Shown: piece by piece, positions 1-59,549 of the stretch
Layout: every line of letters starts with the position of its first letter
Position numbering within the stretch: the first letter of the stretch is position 1
Source: a virus
Direction: 5' to 3' (one strand)
IMG/VR virus record: IMGVR_UViG_3300032038_004959
DNA: 59,549 nucleotides
The notes under the pieces: model-generated
The model's input: the letters and a program-made list of their open reading frames with translations, nothing else
Told to the model about the DNA's origin: nothing
The model's database searches: none
Program-made: the position numbers and the translations under genes

Positions 1-127
1 TCCTTGCAGAAGTCTTGCAACTGCGCCCCTCCGTATTCGATGAGACCATGCTTGCTTATCCATTCCTCCGCTCGCTGAAATAGTGATGCTGATTTCTTCA
101 TGTCTGCAAATCGATTAGTTTATAGAA
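1..127. repeat. Terminal direct repeat identical to 59423..59549 (circular-closure overlap)
   Basis: Bases 1..127 read identically to 59423..59549. The repeat cuts through the 5' end of the terS-like ORF, so it is not a gene boundary. Confidence 0.9.
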
Positions 128-15073: not shown

Positions 15074-15110
15074 AATGCGTTGAAATTTTGAATTGTGAAA
15101 CATAAATTGA

Positions 15111-29990: not shown

Positions 29991-30435
29991 TTCAATGAAA
30001 CTCCTTCAGTTCCTCAGGTCTGAGGTGTTCGAGAATGAACCTACCAACCTCTACCTGCATTCGTGATTTTTCAGTTTTCCGATTTATTATCGCTTTTACT
30101 GAGGCTCAGGTCTCTCGCCCTCAGCTATTCTCTATCTCGTAGGGATATGTCGTAGAGACGATTATTCGGGGAGTTTCGCCCCTATATTTCTTTTCTGTTT
30201 GCAAGCCGAGAACCGTTATTCGTATTCGAGTTCGATGACGCATTATTCGCATTCGCATAAACGACACCGCCATTCGCATTCGCATTGTTATTCGACCGAC
30301 CAACGACACGGCAAATGAGACCCTCTACCTTTCGCCTTTCGGCATCGCTCACGCAGGAGAGCGAGCGGTCTTTTCAGACCGCAACGCCCTGCGCTTTTTC
30401 GCTTTATTATTTTTCTGTTTCATATTCCTTACCTT
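29991..30435 (-). ncRNA. Presumed DGR template RNA region (TR plus structured spacers)
   Basis: No credible ORF here. The TR is flanked by hairpins at 30365..30382 (GCGGTC/GACCGC), 30168..30182 (GGGG/CCCC), 30099..30124 (CTGAGG/CCTCAG) and 30012..30025. Confidence 0.5.
30201..30313 (-). repeat. DGR template repeat (TR)
   Basis: Intergenic copy. In the VR frame it reads CRVVGRSNNNANANGGVVYANANNASSNSNTNNGSRLA, rich in AAY codons. It has 27 coding-strand adenines, and both VRs differ from it almost only at these positions. Confidence 0.85.
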
Positions 30436-33400: not shown

Positions 33401-36400
33401 TCAACCTCAGCATCGACCGTCTGACCGCCATCATTATCCTTGCCATTGCAAGTATCGCAGTCATAGACTTTGTTCAGATACATTCGCATTGCGAGCGTTC
33501 CTGTGGTCGAATCGCTTTCCTCATTGGCATCATTATAATAGACACCATTCACGACCTTACAACCATCCTCCAAGAACCACATCGGCTGCATATTCTTGGC
33601 TCTTTGGTCAACGGCAGCGCAATAGTCGGTGAATACATCGTAAGAGAGGCATGAGTGAGGCGATGCGTACTTATAGAGGTCTGTTTTCCAGAGATTGAGA
33701 CCTGTCTGCTCATGCTTATCATAATCGCATGAATCGCAGAACTTCATCCAACGATAGAGATTGTAAGGCACTTTCTTTCCGAGCGCATAGGCGATAGCGA
33801 GATTATCATCATCAACCAAGCACTCGAAATAATAAGTCCATGCAGGAACGGTCTGAACCGAAATATCGCCTCCATCGATGAGAGCCTGCACCCACTTAGA
33901 GAATGAGGTGCTTGGAGCCATCATGTCAGCCACCGAAGAAACTCCCTTGAACCAATCCATGCCCTGATAATTCAGCAGCTCAAATCCATCGGTCGGATTG
34001 ACAACAGAGCCTGTGACCGTCCATCTGCCGTTTGCATTCTGAACCATCGAGCCTGTCTGCTCAATCCATGATGTGCCGTTATGCTTCATCACCTTATAAG
34101 ATGAACCGCAATACATCGAGAGGACATAAGTTGCAGAGGTATCAAGACCGCTTGTAGCAAGGAAACGGCTCTTTGTCTGAGCGAGAGTCTCGCCATCCGT
34201 TCCGAAGAACTCGATGAAGTCTCCGTAATTGAGGCATCCCTTGTTATAGCCAGGCACATCATTGAAACCGAGTGCGACCTGCTCTTTCTTATCCTCTTTC
34301 CAATTTCCCTTTGAATGGAAATACGGACTGCTGCCTGTGTCGCTCTTTGAGCGATACATTGCCACAGGGATATTGGCGGTTGAGTGATTCATCACGAGAC
34401 CATCAACCACGAGCGAGCCTTTCGTCCAAGTACCATCGAAAGCTCTTTGAGCAGGAGTCATATAATTACGACCCAATGCCCTGAATGTTGCATTCATCAT
34501 GTCGCAGATGCCGCAGTCATTCGCATTCGAGCTATCTGAATAATCGACCTTGACCGTGATAATATCCACAGGGATGGAATTATCGTGAATCTGCACCTTA
34601 TTGATAGCAGCGAGAGCGATTGCCCTGCGTCCTGCTTCGGTTGTCTCGTCAGGATTGAGCAGAGTGATGGTAGTGCCGCCTGTCTTGGTAGCCTTATCAT
34701 AGGTCGAACCTTTCTTCTGAGCGAGATAGTAGCGAGGATTCTTCACAGGTCTCTGAGCCGATGTCGTTCCCTGATTCCTGCGAGCCACATCACGAGCCAC
34801 AAAGTTAGTCCAAGGTCTTGCAGGGTCGATATAGTAGAGGGTGACATATATTTGGTCTTTCGTTGATACGGTCGTATCGAGAGCCTCGATGTCTGAGCCG
34901 TTGAAAGGACATTCGATGATATACGCCATCCCTCTATCTGAGAGCTGCGAAGCCTGAGGACGGAGCTTTGTTGTGGTGATTCCGAGTTCGGTCACTTGCT
35001 GAGATGCCATGACATTCTCGAAATTGAACTCCTGCACCATATCCTCTGTATTGGTGAGCTTCACGAGGTAGTTTTGGAATGCTTGGTCGAATTGGAAGTA
35101 ATCTTCCCATGCCAACAGATAATAGAGATAGAAATCACCCTGAGAGCCATTGAATGAGATTGGCTTTTCCTGAATGAGGTTACTCTGACCTGCGACATAT
35201 CCGATAACTGCTACTTCCTCACCATTGAGATAGAGCTTGATGAAATAGTAGGTCACACCGCCACGAGTCTGACCGAGACCCTCGATTGCAGGCTCAACCA
35301 CAATGGCAACTGAGACTTTCTCTCCCTGCTTATAGGCTCTTTCCTCTGCATGATTTGAAAGACCTGTCGCACAATAGATGCCGACCGCCCTTCCTGTCAC
35401 ATAGAAGCCAGCTCCTACGCCCTCATTGAAGCACTCCATCAGGATTGCATCATCATCAACGAGATTCTTTGCAGCGAAAGCGAACTGAATACCCAAACCA
35501 TTACTCTCGATAGATGTAGGCTTGAATGGTTGATGATTGAGCGTTGCAGTCACATCTTCTGCGATTCTCAGAGCTTTCTCACCCAAGAATGATACAAAGC
35601 CTGTTGAACTCCAATTCGAGCCGTTCACGGCGATTTCAAAGCCATTATCGATGATAGAATGGTCTGTTTCCTCATTACTTCTGTTCGAGAATTCAAAGCC
35701 ATAGATTGCGCCTGATTTCAGAGCTGCCTCGATGACCGTTCCGCTAACAAGGAAAGTCGCCTCTACGCCATAGGTGCTTCCGCATTGAACCTTGACGATA
35801 TGAGAGAATGTGCCATCGGATGCCACTCCTGAAACCTGATGTGAATAGGTATAGGCAGCAGAGCGGTATGCGGTATGGCTCTGAATGGCAGTTCCATTCA
35901 GATAGACAGTCGCAGTCGGAGCATTGCTTGTCGGGTCATAGACCGCATAATTGACGGTGATAGTCTCGTAGAGCTTCACGACAGGAGAGATGCCATCACT
36001 CATCCAACTCTCGACCACGAGCGGAGTATTTCTCGTATCATCGATACAGAAAATGCCCGAATAGAGATAGTTGCCGACCACTCCTGAAGCTACATCGACA
36101 CCATGAACACGAATAGGATATGAGCCATGAGCGAGCGTATATCCGAGGCAGTTGTTCGGGTCGATTGAGATACCATGAGAATAGGTATCTTGAACAATCG
36201 TATTGCCCAATTCACGCCATGCACCATCGATATAGATTTCCACGATAGCATTGATGCCCTTATCGCTCGCATTGTTGGCGAACTTGAACAGAGGAATACT
36301 CTTTGCAGTTCCTCCGACAGAGAGAGCCGTGCTTGATGTGTATTGCAGGGTCTGAACGCTGCTCACGGTCACATCTACGGCAGTCACACTGATATTGCGA

Positions 36401-38298
36401 GAGCCTGTGTTTCCTGCATCATCGGTGATGAGACACTTGAAACGGCGCACTCCTGCATTGGCGAAATACTTAGTGACATCCATCACGAAATCATAGGTAC
36501 TCATAGATGGAGATGAAGCCTTATTGAAGTTGAATACCTCCAAAGTGGTATTCGTATCTCTATCGATGAGAGCGATTGTCGCAATCATATTCTCCTGCTC
36601 AGTCTGTCCTACGGTAGTAACCGAGCGGACAGCAGCACGGAGAATGAATGAGCTTCCTGCATTGCCATAGAGAGGCGAGGTCTCAAAAGCCATAGCAACG
36701 ATAGTGCCGCCACCGCCGCCACCGCCGCCTGAGCCGACTGCAAACTGAATCTCATCGCCGATTCCCTCATGCTCTGCGTTTTCGAGCTGCAACTTCACGA
36801 TACCCTCTGTCTCAGTATCGAGCTTGATTCCTGTCGGGAGATGGGTATATGCGCCACCTGTGGAGAAAGCATCATCTCCATCTTCCTCAGGCTCATCTGA
36901 GGTCTCCACCTGAGAACCACCTCCTCCGAAATCCTGCCACAAAGAAGGCTCTCCGAAATCAGATACCACTCCTTTGAACTGCTTGCATTCCCATGTGTTT
37001 TCTGCAATCTGATAGGTGATGACGAGACCGCTCTTTGCATAATCAATCCCTGTGTCGGTAGATAGCTTACGGATTGCAGCAATGGCATATTCGAGAGTAT
37101 AGAAAGCAGCAGATGTGCAAGCTCCACAAAGAGCATCGACATTGATGAGTGTCTCAGCTCCTGCGCTCATTCCTGCAAGGTCGAGCCAATTATTGATATT
37201 CTTGAAGGTCGCCTCCTGAGAATCCTCACCGATATACTGATAAGTCTTCCATGAGCCACGAGCGATAGCGAAAGTTATCTGCATACCGATTGAGGTAAAT
37301 CCTTTCGAGAATGTCACATTGATAGCATTCTGCAAGGTATAGTAACCGCTCTGCAAAGGAACTTCATTCGTGACATTGTAGCAGTTGCCGACTGCTGCCG
37401 TTCCTCCGAATTTCGTCCAAGTGGTAGTGTCGGTGAAATTAACCTTTGCGCTGCCATGCCATTGCCAACTCTCCATCTTTCCATTCGTTCCGAGGAAAGT
37501 GATGACAACACCCTGAGCTTTGTAATATCGGGATTCGTCATTATCATAGAGCAATCCCAAAGCCGTACCAAGCGACATCGGGGTACTCGTGCTGAACATC
37601 TTATTGACATTGATGAACAGAGCAGCAACGATTTCTTCCTGCAACTCTGCTTTTGCATCATCGATGGATTGTCTGATTGCTGCGAGTTCCTCAGGGTCAT
37701 TGCCTACGACTTCGAGAGCTTCATCATCTTCATTCCACGAATAGATAAGACCATCATAGGTATAGAGCTTATCAGCGATAGGATAGGTACGAGTACCATC
37801 CATATATTCATCTGCACCATCCCAATTAGAATAGTACTTGAAGCTGCCTCCTGAATCTACTCGCAGAGCGAACTTGCCACTATTTTTCACATAAACCACC
37901 ACGCCCGATGCAGTCGTTGACTGATTGAGGATAGTAGCAAGTTCAACGATGCCATAGAATCTCTTAGTAGATGTATTCTTGGCAATAGAAAGAGCATCGG
38001 TCGCCTTATCGTCTGCATCTCCTGCGGTTTCCTCTGCCGAAGCAGCAGCCTCTTGCGCTTGCGAGGCAGCTTGTGAGGCACTATTCGCAGTCTGAGTAGC
38101 CGAAGCAGCAGCCTGTTGAGCAGCATTTGCGGTCTGTTTCGCCTGAGCTGCATCCTGAGCCGCTTGGTCATACCCTGCCAAGATAGAACCGAGAGGCACT
38201 TTGACACTCTCATTCTGAGAGTTCACACCGATAGTATATAATCCTTGTGTGGATTGACTTTCGGGCAACTCTGAAATTCTTTTCTTTTGGTCTGCCAT
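30436..38298 (-). CDS. Giant tail fibre / receptor-binding protein, primary DGR target
   Basis: 2620 aa. Fibre-like N-terminus with an Ala/Gln-rich coiled coil, a Gly8 linker (36706..36729), leucine-rich repeats (about 32250..32800) and a C-terminal lectin/FGE-like end carrying VR1. Confidence 0.85.
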   Translation of the reverse strand: MADQKKRISELPESQSTQGLYTIGVNSQNESVKVPLGSILAGYDQAAQDAAQAKQTANAAQQAAASATQTANSASQAASQAQEAAASAEETAGDADDKATDALSIAKNTSTKRFYGIVELATILNQSTTASGVVVYVKNSGKFALRVDSGGSFKYYSNWDGADEYMDGTRTYPIADKLYTYDGLIYSWNEDDEALEVVGNDPEELAAIRQSIDDAKAELQEEIVAALFINVNKMFSTSTPMSLGTALGLLYDNDESRYYKAQGVVITFLGTNGKMESWQWHGSAKVNFTDTTTWTKFGGTAAVGNCYNVTNEVPLQSGYYTLQNAINVTFSKGFTSIGMQITFAIARGSWKTYQYIGEDSQEATFKNINNWLDLAGMSAGAETLINVDALCGACTSAAFYTLEYAIAAIRKLSTDTGIDYAKSGLVITYQIAENTWECKQFKGVVSDFGEPSLWQDFGGGGSQVETSDEPEEDGDDAFSTGGAYTHLPTGIKLDTETEGIVKLQLENAEHEGIGDEIQFAVGSGGGGGGGGTIVAMAFETSPLYGNAGSSFILRAAVRSVTTVGQTEQENMIATIALIDRDTNTTLEVFNFNKASSPSMSTYDFVMDVTKYFANAGVRRFKCLITDDAGNTGSRNISVTAVDVTVSSVQTLQYTSSTALSVGGTAKSIPLFKFANNASDKGINAIVEIYIDGAWRELGNTIVQDTYSHGISIDPNNCLGYTLAHGSYPIRVHGVDVASGVVGNYLYSGIFCIDDTRNTPLVVESWMSDGISPVVKLYETITVNYAVYDPTSNAPTATVYLNGTAIQSHTAYRSAAYTYSHQVSGVASDGTFSHIVKVQCGSTYGVEATFLVSGTVIEAALKSGAIYGFEFSNRSNEETDHSIIDNGFEIAVNGSNWSSTGFVSFLGEKALRIAEDVTATLNHQPFKPTSIESNGLGIQFAFAAKNLVDDDAILMECFNEGVGAGFYVTGRAVGIYCATGLSNHAEERAYKQGEKVSVAIVVEPAIEGLGQTRGGVTYYFIKLYLNGEEVAVIGYVAGQSNLIQEKPISFNGSQGDFYLYYLLAWEDYFQFDQAFQNYLVKLTNTEDMVQEFNFENVMASQQVTELGITTTKLRPQASQLSDRGMAYIIECPFNGSDIEALDTTVSTKDQIYVTLYYIDPARPWTNFVARDVARRNQGTTSAQRPVKNPRYYLAQKKGSTYDKATKTGGTTITLLNPDETTEAGRRAIALAAINKVQIHDNSIPVDIITVKVDYSDSSNANDCGICDMMNATFRALGRNYMTPAQRAFDGTWTKGSLVVDGLVMNHSTANIPVAMYRSKSDTGSSPYFHSKGNWKEDKKEQVALGFNDVPGYNKGCLNYGDFIEFFGTDGETLAQTKSRFLATSGLDTSATYVLSMYCGSSYKVMKHNGTSWIEQTGSMVQNANGRWTVTGSVVNPTDGFELLNYQGMDWFKGVSSVADMMAPSTSFSKWVQALIDGGDISVQTVPAWTYYFECLVDDDNLAIAYALGKKVPYNLYRWMKFCDSCDYDKHEQTGLNLWKTDLYKYASPHSCLSYDVFTDYCAAVDQRAKNMQPMWFLEDGCKVVNGVYYNDANEESDSTTGTLAMRMYLNKVYDCDTCNGKDNDGGQTVDAEVDPNKMPDAQTGYTNPYAGYNSVLFRNIYLQQTVYIDAQNTELSLRTVASAMRSCTATIDGQTLQPFSPEGATYFFLTARIQRWQKKVSSYDGERKYIDFTSTTANNIYFYALQGLGLTSLPAFIERRWRIRDGFYGTGNFFSGVLSGRVNAPSGAKIRITAAKTGYFGIGNDSSGSISESVYLEAGQSHNFTNFSHEEGALLYIYQADRMSMIDLSEITLSNNFDFSVMTLAEEIYLGKVGKVNLTIGAYTLLTNVNLGELPFLKKLDIRGTLITNVVCSGCPRLESLYAANSQLARADIADGAKLTYMQLPSTYTYLRLRYLPNLQRSGLILADKRSITTLIIENCAKISSVDLLRELAGTSGNNLRVVRATPYNVSDDGSDLTTISALHLSGLDANLTAQTAPAIVGTYMLSKYTDNAVLSAWQSEFADLTIHQSQYTLIEMDDTLTDPQNITNKDNNTTGDSYEPSGHISKIRSLMIPVTGKLNPTSGRWEGVKMSESDYKKLKDGSDFDYSDNLGSGNDAMMRIPHLWYKGINDFKNQKKYIAWSSLSSEPISSASRINRKKLSQILMRENAAIMVSNITENVSTLESSGVVSETANHNTYQIDVEGMKQVRYPGLNNEAIGACFLNESGVIISKYNMAVANNLFDFVNGDYIFINVPSEAKTFVFTSPSGISSDIEAIAVDSTEIEAIEPDWVESDECLGAIYQGSIDSLIRLRSVSGVSVRVGTGTSTTSIEWQYDADGNPINTPTGSMNYTAKDFQNLARRRGAGYQLIDYEMSKLLAILFFSLSGTRDSSKYCGYGKSAGGTTGYLDSLGNTTSTNLGSTSGQGNKCMGFESFFACTYEWMDMVAVNVPSFVQAFKDKMLDGIGTYPIDAKYHIYDPINETERVVQALTTNSGYCVARTKHGRFCDIVASKFVNDNSRFATHYADGQYYTSSRCRVVGRSDSDVYANGGVVCAGAGSASSRSFSNGGSRLAFRGEISISE
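30467..30579 (-). repeat. DGR variable repeat 1
   Basis: A 113-bp alignment to the TR gives 18 differences. Seventeen are at TR coding-strand adenines and one is not (TR 30282 g versus 30548 a). Confidence 0.85.
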
Positions 38299-49632: not shown

Positions 49633-49678
49633 ATTATCTTTAATTAAAAAAATGATGTAGAATTCGAGTTCTTTGGCG

Positions 49679-49686
49679 CAAAGATA
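49679..49686 (-). promoter_or_regulatory. Candidate -7 promoter box (TATCTTTG) for the capsid/tail operon
   Basis: Plus-strand caaagata, 46 nt upstream of the scaffold ATG. The palindrome ATGCCTATTAAGCAC lies at 49704..49718. Confidence 0.4.
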
Positions 49687-49840
49687 CGATTTTTCTTTGA
49701 TATATGCCTATTAAGCACCCAAAAATTTTTTTATATTTAACATTGTGCAGACCACGCAGTTATAGCGTTTATCAAGATATTATTAAGATTTTTTAAGAAA
49801 AATAATCGCTCAAAAAGTTGCCTATTAAGTAAATAGTCTA

Positions 49841-49848
49841 TATCTTTG
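49841..49848 (+). promoter_or_regulatory. Candidate -7 promoter box (TATCTTTG) for the plus-strand accessory island
   Basis: Exact TAnnTTTG match, 83 nt upstream of the ATG at 49932. Flanked by palindrome-like sites at 49818..49832 and 49862..49876. Confidence 0.4.
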
Positions 49849-49931
49849 CACACAGAAAGAGATACCTAATAGGCATTTCAATCGAAAACGAGAATGTAAA
49901 ACGGAAGTTTCAAAATTAAAATTTCAACGCA

Positions 49932-50444
49932 ATGTTAATTTCAGAATTCATCGACAGAACAGGTTTCAGACCAACAGAGGACTACTATCACACAGTGATT
50001 GATCCTGAGTATAATCGTAGCAACCTTGATAAGGATGCTTGGTGCAAGCAATGGAAAAAGAACGGAGGCATTCAGAAAGCCTATGATGCTCTCAAAGAGC
50101 AAGCCGCCAATGAATATGCCAATGCCCTGAGTCTCGAAAATGAGGTTAAGAAGCTCAAAGAAATGAATGACAATCAGTCTCAGGTCATCCGTGATGAGCG
50201 AGAGAAATCCTTTGAACTCAGTCAGACTCTCGATAATGCCATGAGCGACCTGAATGCAGCTCAGGAAAGAGAGCAATCAATGATGTATGAGCTTCTCGAA
50301 ATCTCTGAGAAATACTCATCTGCTGAACTGAGAGAGATTGTCATCAACGCCATCGGCTTCAAAGAATATATCTCATATAAATTCGAGCATGATATGGCTA
50401 TATGGCAGCTCGATAGAGATAAAATCATCGAGAATCTGAAATAA
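49932..50444 (+). CDS. Hypothetical coiled-coil protein
   Basis: 170-aa ORF. TTCAACGCAA (49923..49932) abuts the ATG. Confidence 0.5.
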   Translation: MLISEFIDRTGFRPTEDYYHTVIDPEYNRSNLDKDAWCKQWKKNGGIQKAYDALKEQAANEYANALSLENEVKKLKEMNDNQSQVIRDEREKSFELSQTLDNAMSDLNAAQEREQSMMYELLEISEKYSSAELREIVINAIGFKEYISYKFEHDMAIWQLDRDKIIENLK

Positions 50445-50458
50445 ACTAAGTTTAATCA

Positions 50459-50478
50459 GGGGAGGCTCAGTCCTCCCC
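50459..50478 (+). other. GC-rich hairpin after ORF 49932..50444
   Basis: GGGGAGG ctcagt CCTCCCC: 7-bp stem and 6-nt loop. No U-tract follows, so terminator function is uncertain. Confidence 0.35.
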
Positions 50479-50494
50479 ATAAATCAACGCAACA

Positions 50495-51325
50495 ATGGAG
50501 AAAGTAAATGTTTATCAGATGGTCACAGACCGCATCATCGAGGAACTTCAAAAAGGTATCATTCCTTGGCATAAGCCTTGGTCAGGTGCAGGTCTCGCAG
50601 ACGGAGGCGCAGTGAACTATGTTTCACGCAAGCCTTATTCAATGCTCAATCAGATGCTTTTGGGTCGAGAGGGCGAGTATCTCACATTCAAGCAGGTCAA
50701 AGACTTGGGAGGCGACATCAAGAAAGGCGCAAAATCATCGATGGTCGTTTTCTTCACGATGATTTCTCACGGCAAGAAAAAGACTCAGGATGAGAACGGA
50801 AACGAGGTCGAAGTTACGACCGCCAAAGAGCATCTTATCCCTGTCCTGAAGTATTATCGAGTATTCCATATTGATGACACAACAGGAATCGAGAGTAAGA
50901 TTAAGGCAGACGAGCCAATCGAGCCGACAATCCTTCCAATCGAAGCTGCTGAGAATGTCATCAACGGCTCTCCTGAGCCTGAGAAAGAGCCTCAGAGCGA
51001 AGATTTATCTCCGATGATGAAGCAGTTTCAGGATTTGAAAGCCACGCATCCTGATGCGACTATCTTATTCCGATGCGGTGATTTCTACGAGACCTATCAA
51101 GAGGATGCAGAAGTGGTCGCCAAGATACTCGGTATCACCCTCACCAAGAAAGATGATATTAAGATGGCAGGATTCCCACATCACGCCCTCGACCAATATC
51201 TCCCGATGCTCATCCGTCATGGTATGAGAGTCGCTATCTGCGACCAGCTCGAAGACCCTAAGACCGCTCAGAAGCTCGCAAAGCGAGGCATCACAGAGAT
51301 TGTTTCATCCGATAATAATAATTAA
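50495..51325 (+). CDS. ArdC-N (DUF1738) ssDNA-binding domain fused to a MutS domain I (mismatch-binding) module
   Basis: 276 aa. N-terminus PWHKPW...[15 protein letters not shown] as in ArdC-N. C-terminus [29 protein letters not shown]...[33 protein letters not shown] aligns by eye with the E. coli MutS N-terminus. Confidence 0.8.
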
Positions 51326-51330
51326 AGATT

Positions 51331-51525
51331 ATGGCACAAGAAGAAAAAAGAGAACAGGTTATTCAGAATATCGCAGATATGCTGAGAACAAATCCATTCA
51401 CATTCGAATTCAAAGTGAAGAAAAATCCGAAAGGCATCAAAGTCATCTACGAGGTCACTCAGGACGAGATGGATGCCATGATGAAGAAAGCCGCAGAGGA
51501 ACATAAAGCGAAGAAAGGGCAGTAA
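51331..51525 (+). CDS. Hypothetical small protein
   Basis: 64-aa ORF, tightly spaced in the plus-strand island. Confidence 0.4.
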   Translation: MAQEEKREQVIQNIADMLRTNPFTFEFKVKKNPKGIKVIYEVTQDEMDAMMKKAAEEHKAKKGQ

Positions 51526-51527
51526 TT

Positions 51528-51695
51528 ATGGCAACACAGAAAGAAAAGCTCATCAAAGCCACATTGATGGCTCAGAGAGTGAAGAATATCGCAAAGAATC
51601 TTCGCAATGCAGCAGATGAATATGGAGTGAGATTCCCTCATGTCTATGCTGAACAGATGGAAGAAATCGCAAATGATTTCCTGGAACTCAAATGA
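51528..51695 (+). CDS. Possible 55-aa ORF (below the track cutoff)
   Basis: Hand translation gives MATQKEKLIKATLMAQRVKNIAKNLRNAADEYGVRFPHVYAEQMEEIANDFLELK*. It starts 2 nt after the previous stop. Confidence 0.3.
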   Translation: MATQKEKLIKATLMAQRVKNIAKNLRNAADEYGVRFPHVYAEQMEEIANDFLELK

Positions 51696-51806
51696 CAATC
51701 AGAAATGGCGTTTCCTGCGATTTTCTCTGTTTGAGGTGATAAAATCCTCATTTCTGAGTCAAAATCGTGGGAAATCGCCGAAAAAATAGTAATTTTGCAG
51801 CATGAA

Positions 51807-52034
51807 ATGAAAGTAGTACATCTTAAATTGAATGAACCTCACGATGGAGAGACTGATTTCTATTTCGGTTCTCTGAAAGCCATCTACGATGCAATCCCTC
51901 AGAAAGAAATCGGGATTGCCTATAAATCGCTTACCAATGCGATACGAGGCAAGAATGAATATCAGAATAAGCGATGCACGATTAAGGTCGGGCAACTCAA
52001 ACAGAAGTCTCAATCTAAATTCAACGCAACATGA
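51807..52034 (+). CDS. Hypothetical protein
   Basis: ATG at 51807 (MKVVHLKL) is preferred over the TTG at 51795. A TAATTTTG box at 51790..51797 would make the mRNA nearly leaderless. Confidence 0.4.
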   Translation: MKVVHLKLNEPHDGETDFYFGSLKAIYDAIPQKEIGIAYKSLTNAIRGKNEYQNKRCTIKVGQLKQKSQSKFNAT

Positions 52035-52861
52035 TAGGAGCTATTATCGGTGATATTGTAGGCAGCACCTACGAATTTCACAACACAAGAGATTATGATT
52101 TCCCCCTCTTTCCTGAGGGTAGTACATTCACGGATGATACCATCTGCACCATAGCGATTGCAGATGCCATCCTGAAAAGCTTCGCCCCTTATCGGGATAG
52201 CCTGATAGAGTGGTGTAGGCGATATCCTGAAAAAGAGGCAATGTTCGGAACGGCTTTCTCAACTTGGTTTAAGAGCGATGACCCTCATCCCTATGAATCA
52301 TTCGCCAATGGAGCCGCCATGCGATGCTCACCTTGCGGATGGGCTGCAAAGAATCGCCTTGATGCTGCATTGGAGGGTGAGGATTCTGCTGGGTGCAGCC
52401 ACAATCATCCTGAGGGATTGAGAGGGGCGAGAACGATATCGGATGCGGTCTATATCCTCAGCAATTATCATTGGAGAAAGGCGAGGGCTATGGTATATGA
52501 CTTGGTCTGCAAGGAATATGGAGATGATTGGGAGGAAAAGATTCCTCAGAGAGGTCAATGGGATGCGACTTGCAGGGGATGCGTTCCTCTCGCATTTCAT
52601 ATCTTCTTTGAATCTGAGAACTTCGAGGATGCTATCAGACTTGCAATATCCTACGGAGGGGATTCCGATACGATGGGAGCCATCGTAGGCTCATTGGCGG
52701 GGGCTTATTATGAAATCCCTGAGCATATCTATTCGGAGGCTCTTGATAGGCTCCCAAAGGAGATGATTGAAATCATCTATACCTTTGCCGAGAAATTTCA
52801 GCCTTGCTGCGAATATAGCTTCTATATCAGAGAAAAGTTCAATATCGGGAATGATAACTAA
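52031..52861 (+). CDS. ADP-ribosylglycohydrolase (ARH/DraG family)
   Basis: 276 aa. N-terminal GAIIGDIVGSTYEF, FTDDT, and C-terminal GGDSDTMGAIVGSLAGAYY are typical ARH metal-binding motifs. Confidence 0.85.
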   Translation: MIGAIIGDIVGSTYEFHNTRDYDFPLFPEGSTFTDDTICTIAIADAILKSFAPYRDSLIEWCRRYPEKEAMFGTAFSTWFKSDDPHPYESFANGAAMRCSPCGWAAKNRLDAALEGEDSAGCSHNHPEGLRGARTISDAVYILSNYHWRKARAMVYDLVCKEYGDDWEEKIPQRGQWDATCRGCVPLAFHIFFESENFEDAIRLAISYGGDSDTMGAIVGSLAGAYYEIPEHIYSEALDRLPKEMIEIIYTFAEKFQPCCEYSFYIREKFNIGNDN

Positions 52862-52868
52862 TTGATGA

Positions 52869-53090
52869 ATGAATATGGAAAAAGACCCTGATTTCAAATC
52901 CCTCCATGCTGACCCTAATATGGAATGGGATGATACCCGAATCTGCCATGACTGCCTGAATCGGGTTCCCTTGGAGGGTAGTGAATGTGATGTATTGGAT
53001 GATGTCGGAGATGTGAATGAAGCAATCAGAAAGAATCAATGCGAATTCTACATCAAAAGACAATCAACAGAGAAAAAGGATGGTAAATGA
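52869..53090 (+). CDS. Hypothetical small Cys-containing protein
   Basis: 73-aa ORF, the last gene of the plus-strand island. Confidence 0.4.
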   Translation: MNMEKDPDFKSLHADPNMEWDDTRICHDCLNRVPLEGSECDVLDDVGDVNEAIRKNQCEFYIKRQSTEKKDGK

Positions 53091-53103: not shown

Positions 53104-55986
53104 TTATGGAACCAATCTGCATCTGATAACGAGATGGTCGTATGTTTGCCAATCTCCCTTTGTCTTTCCCATCGATGATGATAAATATTGCAACTTGGTT
53201 GCTCTGCCTAAAACCACCTCACTCTCAGAGTAGTTATTGGTGAAATAGAGAGGTGTATTTGGTGGAACCTCTATCTGTAATTTGACGGCATAGCTATCAT
53301 AGAATACATTCTGAATCTCATTGGTAGATGCGCTGAGGAAAGCTGGGTCTTGCGACAAATCCTTTCCACTTGATAGCTTGGATAACTGAGATAGCATATT
53401 CTGCTTTGATGACATAGCCGATGAAGGGAATGATATTCCGAATACAGACTTTAACGCACTAAGCTCCACATATCGGGTGATGAGGATAGGGAATGGCAGG
53501 GAGAATCCCGCTATCTTCTTATCGAGAAGTTTGATGGTCTTGATATCATCATCGGTTGCACCATGAGCTTTGAGCATTGATTCGACATTTCCATCCATCT
53601 TTCCCCTGATATCATGAGCACGGAATATTCGGTTGATATAGAAAGAATTTCCCGTCTGAACATATCCGCCTCTGCCTCCATGACCTCCACCGCTCTGCAT
53701 GTGGTTCCAAAGTCGCCTTCTCTCGGTCGGGGTCTCGATTGGATTATTATCATAGAGTTCCCGATGCTGAGTACCCTGCAAATGGATGAATCCCTTATCT
53801 ACCACCACATTACTCGGTGATACCTTTGCACCGATGGATTTCATGTAATCGAGATAATCCTGCTTGGTCTCTGCATCCGATTTCGGAATGAATCCTCCGA
53901 TGCTCTGACCCTTCTTCTGTGCTGCAATCTTAGCGGAACTCCTACGATGAGCCTCCAACTGCTTTACCTTGGCAATCATATCCTTACCCTTTGCACTGAG
54001 TTCATCGATGGTCGTATCATTATTGGCAAATAGGGCATCGAACTCGGCAAGGAGTCTCTGTCCGACCTTTCCATTCGAGTTTTTCAGGACATCAATCTCA
54101 TGCGCAAGGCTATTCTTGACGAACTTCATCTCGATTCTATGCTCAACCAATTCGAGCCGCTTCTTATATGCATCCTGAGATACCTTCCATGTGGCATATT
54201 TGGTTCCCTTGGTTCCCATCCATTGAATCTCATGTTCGAGACCTTTCTTGAGTTTATCCAAGTTGGTATCTGAATCGAAATCCCATGAATAGCGGTTGAA
54301 GAATTCCTGAATCTTTCCATTGACCGTGATGGCATCCTGCATGGAGAATTGCTTGGCAACCTCCAAGGGATTCTCGATATTGGATAGTGCAAGAATCTCA
54401 TTCTTCATCTTTGTGAGGGCATCAATCTGAGCCTTGATGATATTGAGCTTATCATTCTTGATGGCATCCTGAATGGCGGTCATATCGATATCCTTGATTC
54501 CTGATAGCTCATTCCTGATATCAATACCGCTCTCGATGATTCCACGCTTCGCCTGAGCGAGTTTCAGAGCCTCAGAACGCACATCATCCCATCTGCCATG
54601 ATTATAGGCTTCCTGCAAGGCTGAGGTATCGAATCCATCCATTCCCTCGAAATCTTTGAGATATCTCTGAGCCACATCCATAGACTTTGCCCTGAATCTC
54701 GCTTTCTTGGTAATCTCATCAATCTGCTCAGGAGTGCGATTCTCATGTCTGAGCTTCGCTTTTTCGAGGATAGAGAGTTCTTTCGGCTGAGGATTGATAA
54801 TCTCATCGATTGCCTGAGCATTATTGCGGATGAAATACGGCTCTGTGCCTCTCTCACGAGATGCTGCAATATCTTCGGCATGGTCTCTCACCCAGTCCTT
54901 GAAAGCCGCAGGATAATCGGTTATCTGCTTCCCCTTCATCCTCTTTGCATGTTCCGCTCTCCAATCTTTCCCTGCTAAGAAATCCTCTGTCATCTTTGCC
55001 ATAGTATCCTCATCAACGAGGATAGGAGTGCAGAAACAGAAGCATTGAGGATGCCAACCATCAAAGACGAAATCCTTTGGATAGTCACCTTGCAGCTTAT
55101 CGCAGATGTCTTTCTTCGGATGCTTCTTTGAGAGCTGCACCCTCTGACCGAGAACGAAATCCATATCCTGCCATCGGGCATTGTCAGCACGGCGATAGGC
55201 GATATTTGTCTCAGTCCGAGCCACACGCATTGCATTACGAGCAGATGACTTATATACTCCTGCACCTGTCTTGTAGGAATCTCTATCATAGTCAATCCAC
55301 TTATATTTGCCTGTGACCTCATCTTTGATGCGTTTCTTCCATTTCTTGCCATAGACAATCTCTTTCCCTGTGATTTCTCCTGTCTCAGGGTCGATGATGT
55401 CTTTCTCGCCTTTCTTATAGCGGAAACGGCGAAACATATCATCGGGATTGTTCAGGTATTGGCGCACCTTTCGGCTCATTGAGCTTGATGATTCGCCCTC
55501 TCCGATAGATACGGTCATTGCGACCTCCATTTCATCCCTGAGCTGACGAACGGATTTCCAAACCCTATCAGAGAGATTCAGACCATGCTCAGAGCGAGAG
55601 AGGAAAGCATCACGAGCCGCCGTATTCCTGCCCATCCAAGCCGAGAACTCAGGACTTTCGAGGACTTTCTTTCCGAATACGGATTGAACGAGCTTATCGC
55701 ATTCCTGATTGGCTGCATCCCATTCGAGTTTCACTCCCTGCTGAATAGCCATCGTAACGGCAGAATGCAGTCGGCGAAGCAAGACCTCGACCTCTTTCTG
55801 TTTCTTGACACTCTCTCCATCGAAAGAGAACATCACTCCCTCATCGAGTGAGGGCATGGTCTTATTGAGAGCGAGAATATCGTTCACCGTCTTAGCGAAC
55901 AATAATCTCACTTTCTCTGCGTATGCCTCTGTTCGCCTGATTCGGGCGAGAGTTGCAGCCTTTGGGTCTGAGCCTTGCTTTGCCAT
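53104..55986 (-). CDS. MuF/SPP1 gp7-like head morphogenesis protein with a C-terminal ADP-ribosyltransferase toxin domain
   Basis: 960 aa. The MuF core has ARTETNIAYR and WHPQCFCFCTP. The C-terminal roughly 190 aa have FYINRIFR, ITRY (Arg), SAST (STS-like) and SESEVVLGR (ExE), which is the R-S-E ART pattern. Confidence 0.75.
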   Translation of the reverse strand: MAKQGSDPKAATLARIRRTEAYAEKVRLLFAKTVNDILALNKTMPSLDEGVMFSFDGESVKKQKEVEVLLRRLHSAVTMAIQQGVKLEWDAANQECDKLVQSVFGKKVLESPEFSAWMGRNTAARDAFLSRSEHGLNLSDRVWKSVRQLRDEMEVAMTVSIGEGESSSSMSRKVRQYLNNPDDMFRRFRYKKGEKDIIDPETGEITGKEIVYGKKWKKRIKDEVTGKYKWIDYDRDSYKTGAGVYKSSARNAMRVARTETNIAYRRADNARWQDMDFVLGQRVQLSKKHPKKDICDKLQGDYPKDFVFDGWHPQCFCFCTPILVDEDTMAKMTEDFLAGKDWRAEHAKRMKGKQITDYPAAFKDWVRDHAEDIAASRERGTEPYFIRNNAQAIDEIINPQPKELSILEKAKLRHENRTPEQIDEITKKARFRAKSMDVAQRYLKDFEGMDGFDTSALQEAYNHGRWDDVRSEALKLAQAKRGIIESGIDIRNELSGIKDIDMTAIQDAIKNDKLNIIKAQIDALTKMKNEILALSNIENPLEVAKQFSMQDAITVNGKIQEFFNRYSWDFDSDTNLDKLKKGLEHEIQWMGTKGTKYATWKVSQDAYKKRLELVEHRIEMKFVKNSLAHEIDVLKNSNGKVGQRLLAEFDALFANNDTTIDELSAKGKDMIAKVKQLEAHRRSSAKIAAQKKGQSIGGFIPKSDAETKQDYLDYMKSIGAKVSPSNVVVDKGFIHLQGTQHRELYDNNPIETPTERRRLWNHMQSGGGHGGRGGYVQTGNSFYINRIFRAHDIRGKMDGNVESMLKAHGATDDDIKTIKLLDKKIAGFSLPFPILITRYVELSALKSVFGISFPSSAMSSKQNMLSQLSKLSSGKDLSQDPAFLSASTNEIQNVFYDSYAVKLQIEVPPNTPLYFTNNYSESEVVLGRATKLQYLSSSMGKTKGDWQTYDHLVIRCRLVP

Positions 55987-55999
55987 TTATCGTTTTTGC

Positions 56000-57526
56000 T
56001 TATTTTCCTGCGTTCTGAGCCGTTTTCTTTTTCTTCTTAGCATCTTCATCATCCTCGTCATCTTCATCGCCGTCAGAGAAAGATGCAGCACCTCCATCGT
56101 TACCCATATTGAAGATAGCCTCCTGCTGCTTCTGCCTTTCTTCTGCCTCTGCTGCAAGACGCTCAGATTCACGATTCGGGTCTTTGACGATAGGATTGAG
56201 TTCGACTGCACTTTCTGTTGAGAGGATTCCTGCATCGACTGAGCGGATGATATTATTCAGAGCATCCTCGATGTCCTCACCGAATGGCTCTTGGAATTCA
56301 TGCCCGACCTCCAAAGCCTCACATTGAGAGTGCAGGGAAACATCGAGTACATTTCCGATGATAGAGGTGATGAGCGATGATGTGCGGTCGAGCATCTCAT
56401 CATAGGTCTCTTTGCGCTTCGATGCCTTGATGTCTGCAAGCATCATCACCGTGCGGAGAGCCTTTGCTGAAAGCTGAGAGATTGATTTCAGGGTATCGGT
56501 CGTGATATTAGGAGTGAATGTCTTTTGCAGGATTTGAGTCTGCAACCATTCAAGCTCATCTTTCTTTGACTGAGGCGCATTATCCCAAGTGAGATACTTT
56601 GCAGCCTTTTCGACTCCATCCTTATCATTCGTGATGAGCAGCTTTGCAGCCTCTTTCTTCTCAGGCATATTCTTGATAATATCCTGAGCCATGATGGCGA
56701 TTGGGTCAGCGAAATAATCATTCGTATCAGCAGTTCTCGATGCGATGCTTTCCTCACGATGGATGAGGGCTTCCACACCATCCCATTCCTTTTCCTGACG
56801 GAAATAGATAAGAGGGATTTTCCCGATGAAGTTGATTTCCTCTACAACCTCCCATCCGAGAGCTTTCTTCACGCAATGATAGATGGTCTTAGGCGTGAAT
56901 ACATCGAAATGATATGTCGCTCCTTCTTCAGTATCTCTCACATAATATCCCCAAGCGAGAGCAATCAGATTCTCGTATTGGTCGAATCGGGTATAAATCT
57001 CATCTCCCTTTGAGCGAGCGAGAACCCTGAGCTGACAATCAGGCTTGCCCTCATCATCCTTAAATACACGGAAAAGCAATGCAGATTCCGTCTCTGCTCC
57101 TGCGAGACGCTTGCATTGGCGAATCTTGGCATTGAATCGGGTATTCTTGATGAAATCCTGATAAGCCTTGAATGCGTCATCTGTTCCATCTGAGAGCTGC
57201 GTCCATTTCACAGGGCGACCAAAGAGGAATACAAGCGCAATCTCATTGATGAACACAGGATAAGGGATAGGCAGCTTCCAAACAGGCTCTTTCCTGAGGA
57301 ACTTGCCTTTCTTATCGGTGATAATCTTGTCCTCTCGCTTCATAATCTGATGCTCTTTTGTGATATACTCTTTGAGAGCATCCATCACGAATTCAACACG
57401 AGAGACCATTTTCTCCTTGACTGCGGAAATATCCTTTGCAGCCAACAATTGCTCGAACTCTTGATTTCTTCCGACCAAGGCGTTCACGTAGTTACGAAAC
57501 AAATCTACCAAAAACATAATCTTCAA
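56000..57526 (-). CDS. Portal protein
   Basis: 508-aa ORF between terL and the MuF-like gene, with an acidic/basic C-terminal tail. Size and order are typical of SPP1-type portals. Confidence 0.75.
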   Translation of the reverse strand: MKIMFLVDLFRNYVNALVGRNQEFEQLLAAKDISAVKEKMVSRVEFVMDALKEYITKEHQIMKREDKIITDKKGKFLRKEPVWKLPIPYPVFINEIALVFLFGRPVKWTQLSDGTDDAFKAYQDFIKNTRFNAKIRQCKRLAGAETESALLFRVFKDDEGKPDCQLRVLARSKGDEIYTRFDQYENLIALAWGYYVRDTEEGATYHFDVFTPKTIYHCVKKALGWEVVEEINFIGKIPLIYFRQEKEWDGVEALIHREESIASRTADTNDYFADPIAIMAQDIIKNMPEKKEAAKLLITNDKDGVEKAAKYLTWDNAPQSKKDELEWLQTQILQKTFTPNITTDTLKSISQLSAKALRTVMMLADIKASKRKETYDEMLDRTSSLITSIIGNVLDVSLHSQCEALEVGHEFQEPFGEDIEDALNNIIRSVDAGILSTESAVELNPIVKDPNRESERLAAEAEERQKQQEAIFNMGNDGGAASFSDGDEDDEDDEDAKKKKKTAQNAGK

Positions 57527-57535
57527 TTTTTAAGT

Positions 57536-59017
57536 TTATAATCCGAACATTGACTTATCGATATTTTCGTAGTCAGTATCATCATCTTCTTCGTAGAGGT
57601 CATTTATCGCATATCCGAGAATATCCACGAATTCATCATGTTCCATTGCAGGGAATCCGCATACCTCATCGAGGAAATCATCATTCCAAGAGCCATCAAC
57701 GAGAAAGACACGACCGCATTCAACACGAGGCGATACTACCCTAAACCGAGTTTCCTTTGAATCGACAGGAGTAGGAGTCTCTTTCACATTGAGCGAGGAT
57801 ATTGCTTTGAGCATCTGAACTACGCTCTCGCCATTGGCTTTCGGCTCAACGTGCAGCTTACTCTCTGCATTTCCCTCATGCGCTGCCATATACTCAGGCA
57901 GGAATCGAAGCAAATCAGGCATCTCTTTCCATACTTTCTGAGCATTGTAGATATAGACATATCTGCCTATCCTGCAAGCTGCCAAAATGCCCGATGGGTC
58001 ATTTCCTGTCGGCTTTTTCTTGCCGTATGCAGTATCGAGATAGAAGTGCATCGGCTCATTGAACCTGAGCGACTTGAACTCTGCGAGAGAGATATGCTGA
58101 AACCAATCCCTTTTCACGATATTACCGCCCTCGATGACAGGATGCTGCTGATACAGAGCTGAGAACTCACGAGGTGAGCGATTTTTCTGCTTGATGAGCT
58201 TCTGCACGGAGTGATGCGATGCCCAAAGAGCCTCTCCGACCTTTCGATTACTCAATCCTCCGTCATTCTCTTTCTCGCAGATGGCAGGGATAGCGAGAAC
58301 TTTCCATTCATCTGCCTCTGCTTTCAGGATGCGCCCTGCAAGGTCATCCTCATGCCATCGAGTCATAATAAAGAGCTGTCTCGAATGATTGTGCAATCGG
58401 GTAGTGAGGACGGTATTATACCACTCCCAAACCTTTTGCCGATAGGTCAGCGAATAGGCTTCTGCTGCATCTTTCACAGGGTCATCGATAATCGCTATAT
58501 CGACAGGCGTACCTGTCAGAGGACCACCGACACCGACTGCCTTATAGAATCCACGATGCCCGACCGTTTCAAAGAAATCTACATTCTTGATATAGGTTCG
58601 AGGGTCATTCTTCGCTTTCAGAGAAGTACTGAGATAGGTATCAGGGAAGATTTCTTGATACTCAGGACTCTCAATGATACGCTGCACAGAGCGAGAGAAT
58701 TGCTCTGACAGGTCGGCAGCATACGAGCAGGATGCAATCTTCAAATCAGGGTCTCGACCTAACGCCCAGGCAGGGAAGTTACGAGAGATGATTTCAGATT
58801 TGCCGTGCTGAGGTGGAACGAACACCATCAAGTTCTTTATCTTGCCCTCCAAAAGCATCTGACAATGCTCTGCGATGACACGATGAAACCACTCCAACTC
58901 ATACTTGGGATTGCTATAACCGAGGAAATGCGAGAATGAGGCTGGTGCTTCGAGTTTGAGTCTCATCTGCATCAACCGCATTAGCTTCTGTTGTCTCTCG
59001 ATTTCCGTCAGTTTCAT
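57536..59017 (-). CDS. terL: Terminase large subunit
   Basis: 493 aa. Walker A-like PPQHGKS, plus IIDDP and TRWHEDDLAGR motifs typical of TerL ATPase domains. Confidence 0.9.
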   Translation of the reverse strand: MKLTEIERQQKLMRLMQMRLKLEAPASFSHFLGYSNPKYELEWFHRVIAEHCQMLLEGKIKNLMVFVPPQHGKSEIISRNFPAWALGRDPDLKIASCSYAADLSEQFSRSVQRIIESPEYQEIFPDTYLSTSLKAKNDPRTYIKNVDFFETVGHRGFYKAVGVGGPLTGTPVDIAIIDDPVKDAAEAYSLTYRQKVWEWYNTVLTTRLHNHSRQLFIMTRWHEDDLAGRILKAEADEWKVLAIPAICEKENDGGLSNRKVGEALWASHHSVQKLIKQKNRSPREFSALYQQHPVIEGGNIVKRDWFQHISLAEFKSLRFNEPMHFYLDTAYGKKKPTGNDPSGILAACRIGRYVYIYNAQKVWKEMPDLLRFLPEYMAAHEGNAESKLHVEPKANGESVVQMLKAISSLNVKETPTPVDSKETRFRVVSPRVECGRVFLVDGSWNDDFLDEVCGFPAMEHDEFVDILGYAINDLYEEDDDTDYENIDKSMFGL

Positions 59018-59523
59018 TCTTTGGTCTCAAGTTTGCTGAGTCTCTCGATTTCTTTGTTTATTTCATCAATTGTCATCTCTTTCTCGCCCGATGGTTTCAG
59101 AGTGATGTCGCTCTTTTGGCGGTTCTGATAATGCTCAGGGTCGAGATTGGTGAGCAGGAATATCGCAGCTCCCACATTAGGCTGAATGACGATTTTCTTC
59201 TTTACCATCTTCGTGATGGTCGGCTTGTCGGGATTCTTGGGATTGGGTCGATATTCAGTTGTCGTTTCCTCATGCTCGCTGCCCTTTGCCACCTTAGCGA
59301 GTGTCTCATGCAGGTCGTGAGCGAGAGAGAGCCTGAATGCCTCCCTGCCTTTCTCGATAGCCTTTTTGAAGTCATCCTCTTCATTCAGCCAACGGCGATA
59401 GGTCTTATCGTTGATGCCGAGTTCCTTGCAGAAGTCTTGCAACTGCGCCCCTCCGTATTCGATGAGACCATGCTTGCTTATCCATTCCTCCGCTCGCTGA
59501 AATAGTGATGCTGATTTCTTCAT
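59014..59523 (-). CDS. terS: Terminase small subunit candidate
   Basis: 169-aa ORF overlapping the terL start by 4 nt, with an HTH-like N-terminus. Its first 101 nt are duplicated at 1..101 by the closure repeat. Confidence 0.6.
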   Translation of the reverse strand: MKKSASLFQRAEEWISKHGLIEYGGAQLQDFCKELGINDKTYRRWLNEEDDFKKAIEKGREAFRLSLAHDLHETLAKVAKGSEHEETTTEYRPNPKNPDKPTITKMVKKKIVIQPNVGAAIFLLTNLDPEHYQNRQKSDITLKPSGEKEMTIDEINKEIERLSKLETKE

Positions 59524-59549
59524 GTCTGCAAATCGATTAGTTTATAGAA
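59423..59549. repeat. Terminal direct repeat identical to 1..127
   Basis: Read directly; see feature 1..127. Confidence 0.9.

Follow-up and report, generated by a model that had tools for sequence, protein, structure and literature searches.

A phage gene in which an in-frame deletion joined an ArdC N-terminal domain to MutS domain I

The plus-strand gene at 50495..51325 of IMG/VR record IMGVR_UViG_3300032038_004959, a stretch of 59,549 nucleotides (nt), called the window throughout, from a gut Bacteroidales phage, reads as an ArdC-type single-stranded DNA (ssDNA)-binding domain followed by an isolated MutS mismatch-recognition domain. Such a locus raises the questions of how the two domains came to share one polypeptide and what a protein of this kind could do for a phage. 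We find that the gene encodes a genuine, intact ArdC-N/MutS-domain-I chimera, unique to its contig, which was created by an in-frame deletion at a short microhomology. Taken as a whole, the best explanation is that this deletion-made fusion acts as a two-headed DNA binder, to which we assign a probability of about 0.5.

The chimeric gene and its two domains

The open reading frame (ORF) is built as follows:

50495..51325, plus strand: chimeric gene, ArdC-N, linker and MutS domain I; ATG start, 276 amino acids (aa), from the ORF translation
50507..50866, plus strand: ArdC-N domain, residues 5-124 (Pfam PF08401), ssDNA-binding in its family
50867..51007, plus strand: hybrid interdomain linker, residues 125-171, acidic and proline-rich, its first part from ArdC and its second from ParB-MutS_I
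51011..51310, plus strand: MutS domain I, residues 173-272 (Pfam PF01624)
51077..51091, plus strand: GDFYE motif, with F197 and E199 the counterparts of the mismatch-contacting F36 and E38 of E. coli MutS by residue-level alignment

A Pfam scan recovered ArdcN (PF08401, E=4.1e-26, profile positions 2-123 of 123) and a complete MutS_I domain (PF01624, E=1.2e-34), and nothing significant beyond these two. In PHROGs, the N-terminal half fell in the anti-restriction family phrog_7245 (E=5e-26), and the C-terminal half matched positions 1-110 of a family 853 positions long. When the PDB was searched by sequence, the N-terminal half aligned with residues 6-136 of R388 ArdC (6i89, E=7e-12) and the C-terminal half with residues 11-115 of E. 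coli MutS (E=7e-21), placing GDFYE opposite F36/E38. An AlphaFold model of residues 159-276 had a core predicted local distance difference test (pLDDT) score of 88-97, and the top matches of this model in the PDB by Foldseek were all domain I of MutS or MSH proteins, at a probability of 1.00. The Phe-x-Glu motif is present as G195-D-F197-Y-E199, and the 47-residue linker contains 13 Asp or Glu and six Pro. A MutS_I hidden Markov model (HMM) run against all six-frame ORFs of the window matched the chimeric gene only.

The ORF stops four residues past MutS domain I, and none of MutS domains II-V (connector, lever, clamp and ABC ATPase) was found within it; the NCBIfam MutS equivalog, a model of 793 positions, was matched at positions 2-106 alone, with 134 bits against a cutoff of 480 bits. 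Nor did the chimera give a Pfam match to MPTase-PolyVal (PF18818), the zincin metallopeptidase domain of ArdC with its HExxH motif. The original prediction, made from the letters without database searches, had placed the gene at 50495-51325, quoted motifs for both domains, and noted the preserved Phe-x-Glu along with the lack of connector, clamp, ATPase and metalloprotease domains. Its coordinates and motifs proved accurate, each of these domain calls and absences was borne out, and the MutS_I and ArdC-N profile searches that it proposed as a check both returned significant matches.

Compared with bacterial MutS (E. coli 1e3m), the chimera has the same domain I fold and Phe-x-Glu motif, and where the sequences align its identity to MutS of E. 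coli and of other bacteria with solved structures is 42-50%. Unlike bacterial MutS, it has no connector, lever, clamp, ATPase or dimerisation domains, which puts clamp formation, ATP hydrolysis and MutL recruitment out of its reach.

Origin by deletion between ardC and parB-mutS_I

A full ArdC is encoded at the slot of the chimeric gene in at least eight syntenic relatives. In five of these (L001, L002, L005, L006 and L030) ArdC is followed by orf141 and a ParB_N-HTH-MutS_I gene (HTH, helix-turn-helix), and in three by shortened ParB::MutS_I alleles; in two cut loci, L007 and L008, ArdC ends at the locus edge and the same genes follow. On the plus strand the cassette of the relatives runs orf~160, ArdC, orf141, ParB-MutS_I, small ORFs and an ADP-ribosylglycohydrolase (ARH), and it lies between head genes and the genes for MuF-ART (a MuF protein of an ADP-ribosyltransferase family), portal and terminase (L001, L002, L005, L006, L007, L008 and L030). 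The ParB_N-HTH_ParB/KorB-MutS_I proteins of these loci are 368-394 aa long (for example L001 11451-12620 and L005 4682-5860) and score 96 bits with TIGR00180, above its cutoff; no ParA was present in the loci seen. The adjoining orf141 (141 aa) had no match in Pfam, NCBIfam or PADLOC, and no PADLOC defence model matched the chimera, ParB-MutS_I, orf170 or ARH.

DNA alignment with these relatives resolved the window gene into two parental parts. Window 50419-50986 corresponds to L002 ardC at 94.7% and window 50963-51329 to L002 parB-mutS_I at 90%, and the two alignments overlap at AACGGCT alone:

50963-50969, plus strand: deletion junction, a 7-nt microhomology (AACGGCT) common to both parent genes, from three-way DNA alignments with L002, L001 and L005

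Relative to L005 the window is short by 1,797 nt, a multiple of three, and the frame is kept. At the protein level, chimera residues 1-158 are 98.1% identical to ArdC of L002 and L005, and the N-terminal half, which ends in '...AENVING', reaches 98% identity with ArdC proteins of the ordinary kind, 300 aa long and composed of ArdcN and MPTase. From 'SPEPEKEPQ...' on, the C-terminal half shares 84-92% identity with the C-terminal part of the 368-396-aa ParB_N + HTH_ParB/KorB + MutS_I proteins, and its MutS_I domain is 95% identical to the C-terminal domain of the L005 protein. The ParB_N-HTH_ParB-MutS_I family (L001, L002, L005, L006, L007, L008 and L030; P0063, P0113 and P0119) is the donor of linker and MutS_I, at 90-95% identity and the same cassette position; its members have a ParB/KorB-type tether where the chimera has ArdC-N.

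The ArdC-side breakpoint lies between ArdcN and MPTase and the ParB-side breakpoint between HTH_ParB and MutS_I; because both are in interdomain linkers, both retained domains are complete. No tblastn match to a relative's MPTase segment, to orf141 or to ParB residues 1-262 was found anywhere in the window at E<=1. We conclude that ardC and its neighbour parB-mutS_I were merged into the chimera by a microhomology-mediated deletion that removed ~1.8 kb and kept the frame. What was retained is the 5' 474 nt of ardC, encoding the complete ArdC-N and half its linker, together with half the linker and the complete MutS domain I of the second gene; what was taken out is the ArdC metallopeptidase domain, orf141, and the N-terminal and HTH domains of ParB. 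The chimera has the start and upstream region of ardC and the stop of parB-mutS_I.

Two further observations concern ardC itself. In L030 (3140-4041) ArdC is present as separate ArdcN (159 aa) and MPTase (111 aa) ORFs, through either a frameshift or a real split, and the split sits at the same interdomain linker where the window deletion begins. In the closest ArdC homologue, which is 98% identical (P0001, 375 aa, listed in nr as 'anti-restriction protein [Caudoviricetes sp.]'), ~75 residues of ArdC-N are duplicated in tandem, so that the segment '...HIDDTTGIE' is present twice, a further sign that ardC is prone to rearrangement.

Could an assembly or sequencing artefact instead have joined two genes that are separate in the real phage? 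The junction is found on one contig, and the relatives all have the longer arrangement or different deletions, which would suit such an error. However, the shared sequence of 7 nt is far below any assembler k-mer and too short for a de Bruijn misjoin at usual k-mer lengths, which makes misassembly unlikely. The same is argued by an exact 127-nt terminal direct repeat (window 1-127 = 59423-59549), since an overlap of this kind fits a closed circular assembly from long k-mers. In addition, the join is exactly in frame with clean flanks, and analogous deletions occur in independent samples. We therefore regard an artefact as extremely improbable. The contig is probably a closed circle with a genome of ~59,422 bp, and its gene order wraps round from the queuosine genes at the window start to orf169 and terminase at the window end, as in L002.

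The exact chimera protein occurs once in a collection of ~15 billion proteins, and the 59,549-bp Joint Genome Institute (JGI) contig that encodes it is identical with the window. The two domains were found together in none of the best 120 matches in 5.8 billion protein clusters, the junction pattern had 0 matches in IMG/VR, and the GenBank phage collection gave neither a megablast match to the cassette nor a record spanning both protein halves. Among 185,579 species-representative genomes, the best 80 loci cover the MutS_I half alone. Two junction matches in JGI metagenomes (L003 and L004) were discarded as chance matches, as they have no similarity to the window. An architecture scan was made of the best 150 of 1.84 billion representatives, with five multi-match proteins of 864-6,471 aa left out; no ArdcN plus MutS_I protein lacking MPTase was found among the scanned multi-match proteins of <=1,422 aa. 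The chimera is a derived singleton, present on one contig.

The pairing of the two domains has precedents. MutS-I has been described as a DNA-binding domain of polyvalent proteins in Bacteroidetes and Firmicutes elements, mostly conjugative ones, and ~80% of these proteins also have ArdC-N (Iyer, Burroughs, Anand, de Souza and Aravind 2017, J Bacteriol, PMC5512222). We also found natural ArdcN-MPTase-MutS_I proteins of 453-1115 aa (P0147, P0185, P0124, P0160 and P0263), with P0164 in another domain order, so the pairing as such was already known. The chimera differs from these proteins in being a minimal, MPTase-free form of two domains that a deletion created recently. Like the polyvalent proteins, the chimera holds an N-terminal ArdC-N and a MutS-I in one polypeptide of a Bacteroidetes-lineage mobile element, its gene lies beside virion and packaging genes, its MutS-I is thought to derive from cellular MutS, and it has the two or more conflict-related domains of the polyvalent repertoire that define the class. 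Unlike them, it is only 276 aa long, has neither MPTase nor another effector, and is a recent two-gene deletion product, not an established architecture. Polyvalent proteins are delivered to the host along with the DNA and are often released by an MPTase domain, of which the chimera has none. For the ParB side, the accessible portions of the text and supplements of a 2025 survey of ParB-CTPase fold fusions do not mention MutS or ArdC.

Retention of MutS domain I across alleles

In this phage group MutS domain I commonly occurs without the rest of MutS, fused to ParB or left as short remnants. The short alleles sit directly after a full ArdC and consist of a few N-terminal ParB codons, or in one case an unrelated N-terminus, fused to linker and MutS_I:

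P0116/L197, 1012-1494: ParB codons 1-6 joined to codon 240 onward
P0270/L112, 10001-10462: ParB codons 1-33 joined to codon 275 onward; cluster of 17 sequences, 44-kb contig
P0273/L196, 4001-4435: ParB codons 1-26 joined to ~codon 275 onward
P0269/L198, 1519-1923: ParB codons 1-16 joined to codon 277 onward
P0068: unrelated 46-aa N-terminus joined at residue 228

Loci L112, L196, L197 and L198 thus represent four different in-frame internal deletions of parB-mutS_I, of 702-780 nt, which leave 6-33 ParB codons; none of the four loci has orf141. These four alleles (P0116, P0270, P0273 and P0269) were mapped at the DNA level and are in frame, and several alleles occur on multiple contigs. The 3' breakpoints of three short alleles and of the window fall within nt 816-830 of the intact gene. 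A breakpoint hotspot was considered and dropped, as P0270, P0273 and P0269 may form a nested series and two independent events are therefore counted at nt 816-830. With this possible nesting taken into account, the independent in-frame rearrangements of this Bacteroidales phage group number at least four, the window included, and all of them keep MutS_I.

Ratios of nonsynonymous to synonymous substitution rates (dN/dS) were 0.05-0.08 for the window ArdC-N against relatives. For MutS_I, comparison of intact genes with one another gave ~0.2 and comparison of the window with intact relatives gave 0.18-0.20, and ParB-less alleles compared among themselves gave 0.26-0.48. The window MutS_I has three window-specific substitutions and no stop codons or frameshifts, and every phage-group allele examined has GDFYE or GDFFE. 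The pattern of alleles and substitutions argues that the MutS_I module is a selectively retained unit whose N-terminal partner is replaceable. This evidence does not prove selection on the combination of ArdC-N with MutS_I as such.

It is also possible that the fusion is a neutral by-product, in which dispensable genes were lost and a functionless fused ORF was tolerated, with one half at most still working or the whole decaying. The chimera is a singleton at a deletion-prone locus that has several other alleles and, in L030, an ArdC split in two ORFs, and a recent relaxation of constraint would be invisible to dN/dS. Moreover, with L005 as a proxy, 81 of the 128 direct microhomologies of >=7 nt between the two genes are in frame, so that an in-frame outcome is not rare. 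In contrast, both breakpoints lie within interdomain linkers, which in the L005 proxy holds for the in-frame junctions of 5 of the 128 microhomologies (~4%). The gene has also escaped stops and frameshifts, with its substitutions in MutS_I limited to the three above; MutS_I is kept under purifying selection across independent alleles; and natural proteins with the same two domains are widespread. On balance, we consider a neutral origin without function somewhat unlikely.

The source of the module was sought among species-representative genomes. The best 80 loci for the MutS_I half are 56-72% identical and almost all belong to Bacteroides, Phocaeicola, Prevotella, Paraprevotella, Paludibacteraceae and Muribaculaceae. 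All 25 that were inspected are the N-terminal domain I of mutS, full-length in 24 (861-887 aa) and a 481-aa ORF in the other. Identity and taxonomy fit capture of the module from a Bacteroidales host-lineage mutS, as Iyer et al. proposed. The MutS_I matches, an integrase with an Arm-DNA-bind_5 domain and TAnnTTTG promoter boxes together point to a Bacteroidales host for the phage.

More distant phage contigs hold other arrangements. Standalone MutS_I genes of 108-178 aa lie beside an orf79 homologue and MuF-ART in L012, L013 and L021, and L017 has a 117-aa MutS_I gene 2.4 kb downstream of ArdC. In L014 an N-terminal MutS_I is followed by a ParB-like region in a 685-aa protein, and in L019 and L025 MutS_I is internal in ORFs of >2,670 aa. 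Three candidates on long bacterial contigs (P0369, P0313 and P0321) that at first appeared to be standalone MutS_I were rejected as frameshift-split chromosomal mutS, neither mobile-element genes nor Msl. The split genes, each a MutS_I ORF of 155-193 aa and the remainder, are:

L111, 10001-12624: split chromosomal mutS
L114, 6001-8620: split chromosomal mutS
L115, 6001-8699: split chromosomal mutS

Because of such splits, raw counts of short MutS_I proteins in metagenome-derived databases overstate the true number of standalone copies.

Possible action and genomic setting

How might the chimera act? We suggest, with moderate to low confidence, that it is a non-catalytic, two-headed DNA binder acting on phage ssDNA and on mismatched or distorted intermediates. 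ArdC-N would tether the protein to single-stranded or unwound phage DNA, and the MutS-I head, with its Phe-x-Glu wedge intact, would dock on mismatched or distorted sites. Intermediates would be occupied in this way during phage entry, replication or RecT recombination, and occupancy would keep out host restriction nucleases, in line with what has been proposed for ArdC, and/or host MutS. The tether would be interchangeable, being ParB in the relatives, ArdC-N in the window and almost nothing in the short alleles, and MutS_I would be the conserved part that does the work. Iyer et al. (2017, PMC5512222) have suggested that ArdC-N and MutS-I recognise different features of single-stranded or mismatched DNA. 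R388 ArdC binds ssDNA via its N-terminal domain, and its protease-site mutant E229A retains anti-restriction activity and overcomes HsdRMS restriction (PMC7213743), so an ArdC-like role could survive without the protease domain. The chimera has a homologous N-terminal domain to ArdC of R388 and pSa (PDB 6i89/6sna); it differs in that MutS domain I replaces the C-terminal metalloprotease and in that it belongs to a phage, not a plasmid.

Several points weigh against a two-headed binder. GDFYE is present in 12 of the 38 internal MutS_I domains of large polyvalent proteins, so mismatch-type recognition is not universal in mobile-element MutS_I. An isolated MutS domain I is not known to bind DNA tightly when the clamp domains of full MutS are missing. 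If the deletion happened recently, dN/dS may fail to reveal decay, and singleton status limits the case for selection to the two parts and does not extend it to the fusion. Finally, a full-length AlphaFold model, built from a mixed-architecture alignment, had a mean pLDDT of 47 and was set aside as unusable.

The chimeric gene is flanked by the major head protein on one side and MuF-ART, portal and terminase on the other, within a cassette that is syntenic with those of L001, L002, L005, L006, L030, L112 and L196:

47145-48251: major head protein (Pfam/PHROGs)
49679-49686, minus strand: candidate -7 box TATCTTTG in the opposite direction, from a motif scan of the divergent intergenic region 49633-49931
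49841-49848, plus strand: candidate Bacteroidota-type -7 promoter box TATCTTTG upstream of the cassette, from the sequence and a motif scan
49932..53090, plus strand: accessory cassette between minus-strand head genes, comprising orf170, the chimera, three small ORFs, ARH and orf73
52031-52861, plus strand: ARH (Pfam, PHROGs)
53104-59017: MuF-ART, portal and terminase (Pfam/PHROGs)
53104-55986, minus strand: MuF/head-morphogenesis protein, 960 aa, Bxa ADP-ribosyltransferase family (phrog_16625, E=1.5e-129)

TAnnTTTG occurs 42 times in the window against 27 expected, and 0 of 100 shuffles reached 42. It had been proposed that the chimera could serve as an anti-restriction or anti-defence decoy, and a role of this type would fit both the ARH/MuF-ART/portal setting and the account of Iyer et al. 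2017 (PMC5512222). For the interpretation offered at the outset as a whole, the domain calls and absences stand, whereas the pairing proved to be already described, the fusion a deletion-made singleton, and isolated MutS_I common in the phage group. The MuF-ART gene lies back-to-back with the ARH-containing cassette, and the two products could form an effector/antidote pair. Among relatives, MuF-ART is 875-960 aa long and its identity is 72% in L007 versus 95-96% in L008 and L030.

The window also encodes a diversity-generating retroelement (DGR) and RecT:

14150-15163: RecT
28512-29990: DGR reverse transcriptase (RT), 492 aa, with an RVT_1 match at residues 74-267 alone
30184-30313 and 30450-30579: template region/variable region (TR/VR) repeat pair, 130 nt each, 80% identical

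One variable region lies at the 3' end of a 2,620-aa ORF (30436-38298). The original prediction had speculated that the chimera shields mismatches made when DGR cDNA homes into the VRs. In a strict form of this idea, the protein would be a dedicated mismatch-repair antagonist for the DGR and RecT of the phage, analogous to Msl, whose MutS-I head shields A-to-N heteroduplexes at the VRs from host MutS. Published work now offers a basis for it. Deletion of mutS in Bacteroides raises DGR retrohoming and VR diversification 5-10-fold, and the Bfr, Bth and Bun DGRs carry a factor, Msl, for which homology to the MutS mismatch-recognition domain is described (Macadangdang et al. 2024, bioRxiv 10.1101/2024.11.15.621889). 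MSL accessory genes are found in 16 of 372 DGRs (Wu et al. 2018, PMC5758913). An engineered E. coli DGR was implemented with a cassette expressing RecT and dominant-negative MutL. Since MutS restricts DGR homing 5-10-fold in Bacteroides, an anti-mismatch-repair role of the chimera is plausible, and it would suit a phage that has a DGR RT, a TR/VR pair, RecT and a module 56-72% identical to host-lineage MutS domain I with Phe-x-Glu kept. Msl/MSL proteins, found in Bacteroides elements, are small like the chimera and are described as homologues of the MutS mismatch-recognition domain.

However, Msl genes lie inside DGR cassettes, whereas the chimeric gene is ~20 kb from the TR/VR pair, in the ArdC/ARH/MuF-ART island. 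No window-like RT was found within flanks of up to 4 kb at 25 IMG/VR MutS_I loci, and the C-terminal extension of the window RT has no similarity to the MutS_I HMM. Relatives of the window RT are encoded by 344 IMG/VR stretches, and the best 80 of these share two contigs with the 25 MutS_I loci, both from close relatives of the window phage; because it is drawn from 80 of 344, this overlap is uninformative on a wider link. Polyvalent MutS-I is, moreover, mostly found on conjugative elements with ArdC-N. The link of the chimera to the DGR through shielding from mismatch repair is conjecture, and a dedicated antagonist appears quite unlikely.

A broader proposal is that MutS_I of Bacteroidales phages is a portable anti-mismatch-repair effector, taken from host mutS and placed on interchangeable tethers to block host MutS locally. 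We raise this tentatively and think it unlikely. If it were true, higher DGR retrohoming and more RecT-driven recombination between diverged phages would be expected, and the window fusion would be a natural experiment in tether swapping. Protein mimicry would achieve a similar end without DNA binding, with the host-like domain I as a dominant-negative that binds host MutS or a partner (MutL or the beta-clamp) and poisons repair. The identity of up to 72% to host-lineage MutS domain I is unusually high, and the module would function whether its N-terminal partner is of a quite different kind or nearly absent, as mimicry would allow. Yet the Phe-x-Glu DNA-contact motif is conserved, the module is consistently fused to DNA-binding tethers (ParB and ArdC-N), and domain I is not known to form a major dimer or MutL interface in solved MutS structures. 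We judge mimicry very improbable.

The fusion is an ordinary case of domain shuffling among mobile-element DNA-binding proteins of a known class, and its value lies in the context that it exposes. Host-derived MutS_I has been kept repeatedly under purifying selection in DGR- and RecT-carrying Bacteroidales phages while its partner was lost or swapped. Given that host MutS cuts DGR retrohoming 5-10-fold in Bacteroides, small MutS_I proteins are candidate phage-encoded modulators of mismatch repair. Confirmation would make them a new strategy against the host, with possible use as a tool in recombineering or DGR engineering; otherwise they would be DNA-shielding anti-restriction accessories.

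Two other regions of the window bear on DNA modification and restriction. On the minus strand at 98-2267, perhaps to 3231, the order and lengths of four matching ORFs (194, 194, 118 and 219 aa) correspond to those of the GTP cyclohydrolase I, radical-S-adenosylmethionine (radical-SAM), PTPS (QueD) and QueC genes of L002; synteny with L002 suggests a 7-deazaguanine (queuosine-precursor) pathway, possibly for DNA modification. At 6418-8631, also on the minus strand, a 737-aa protein combines SNF2-related helicase and N6/N4 DNA methylase domains, a further polyvalent-type anti-restriction architecture in the same phage.

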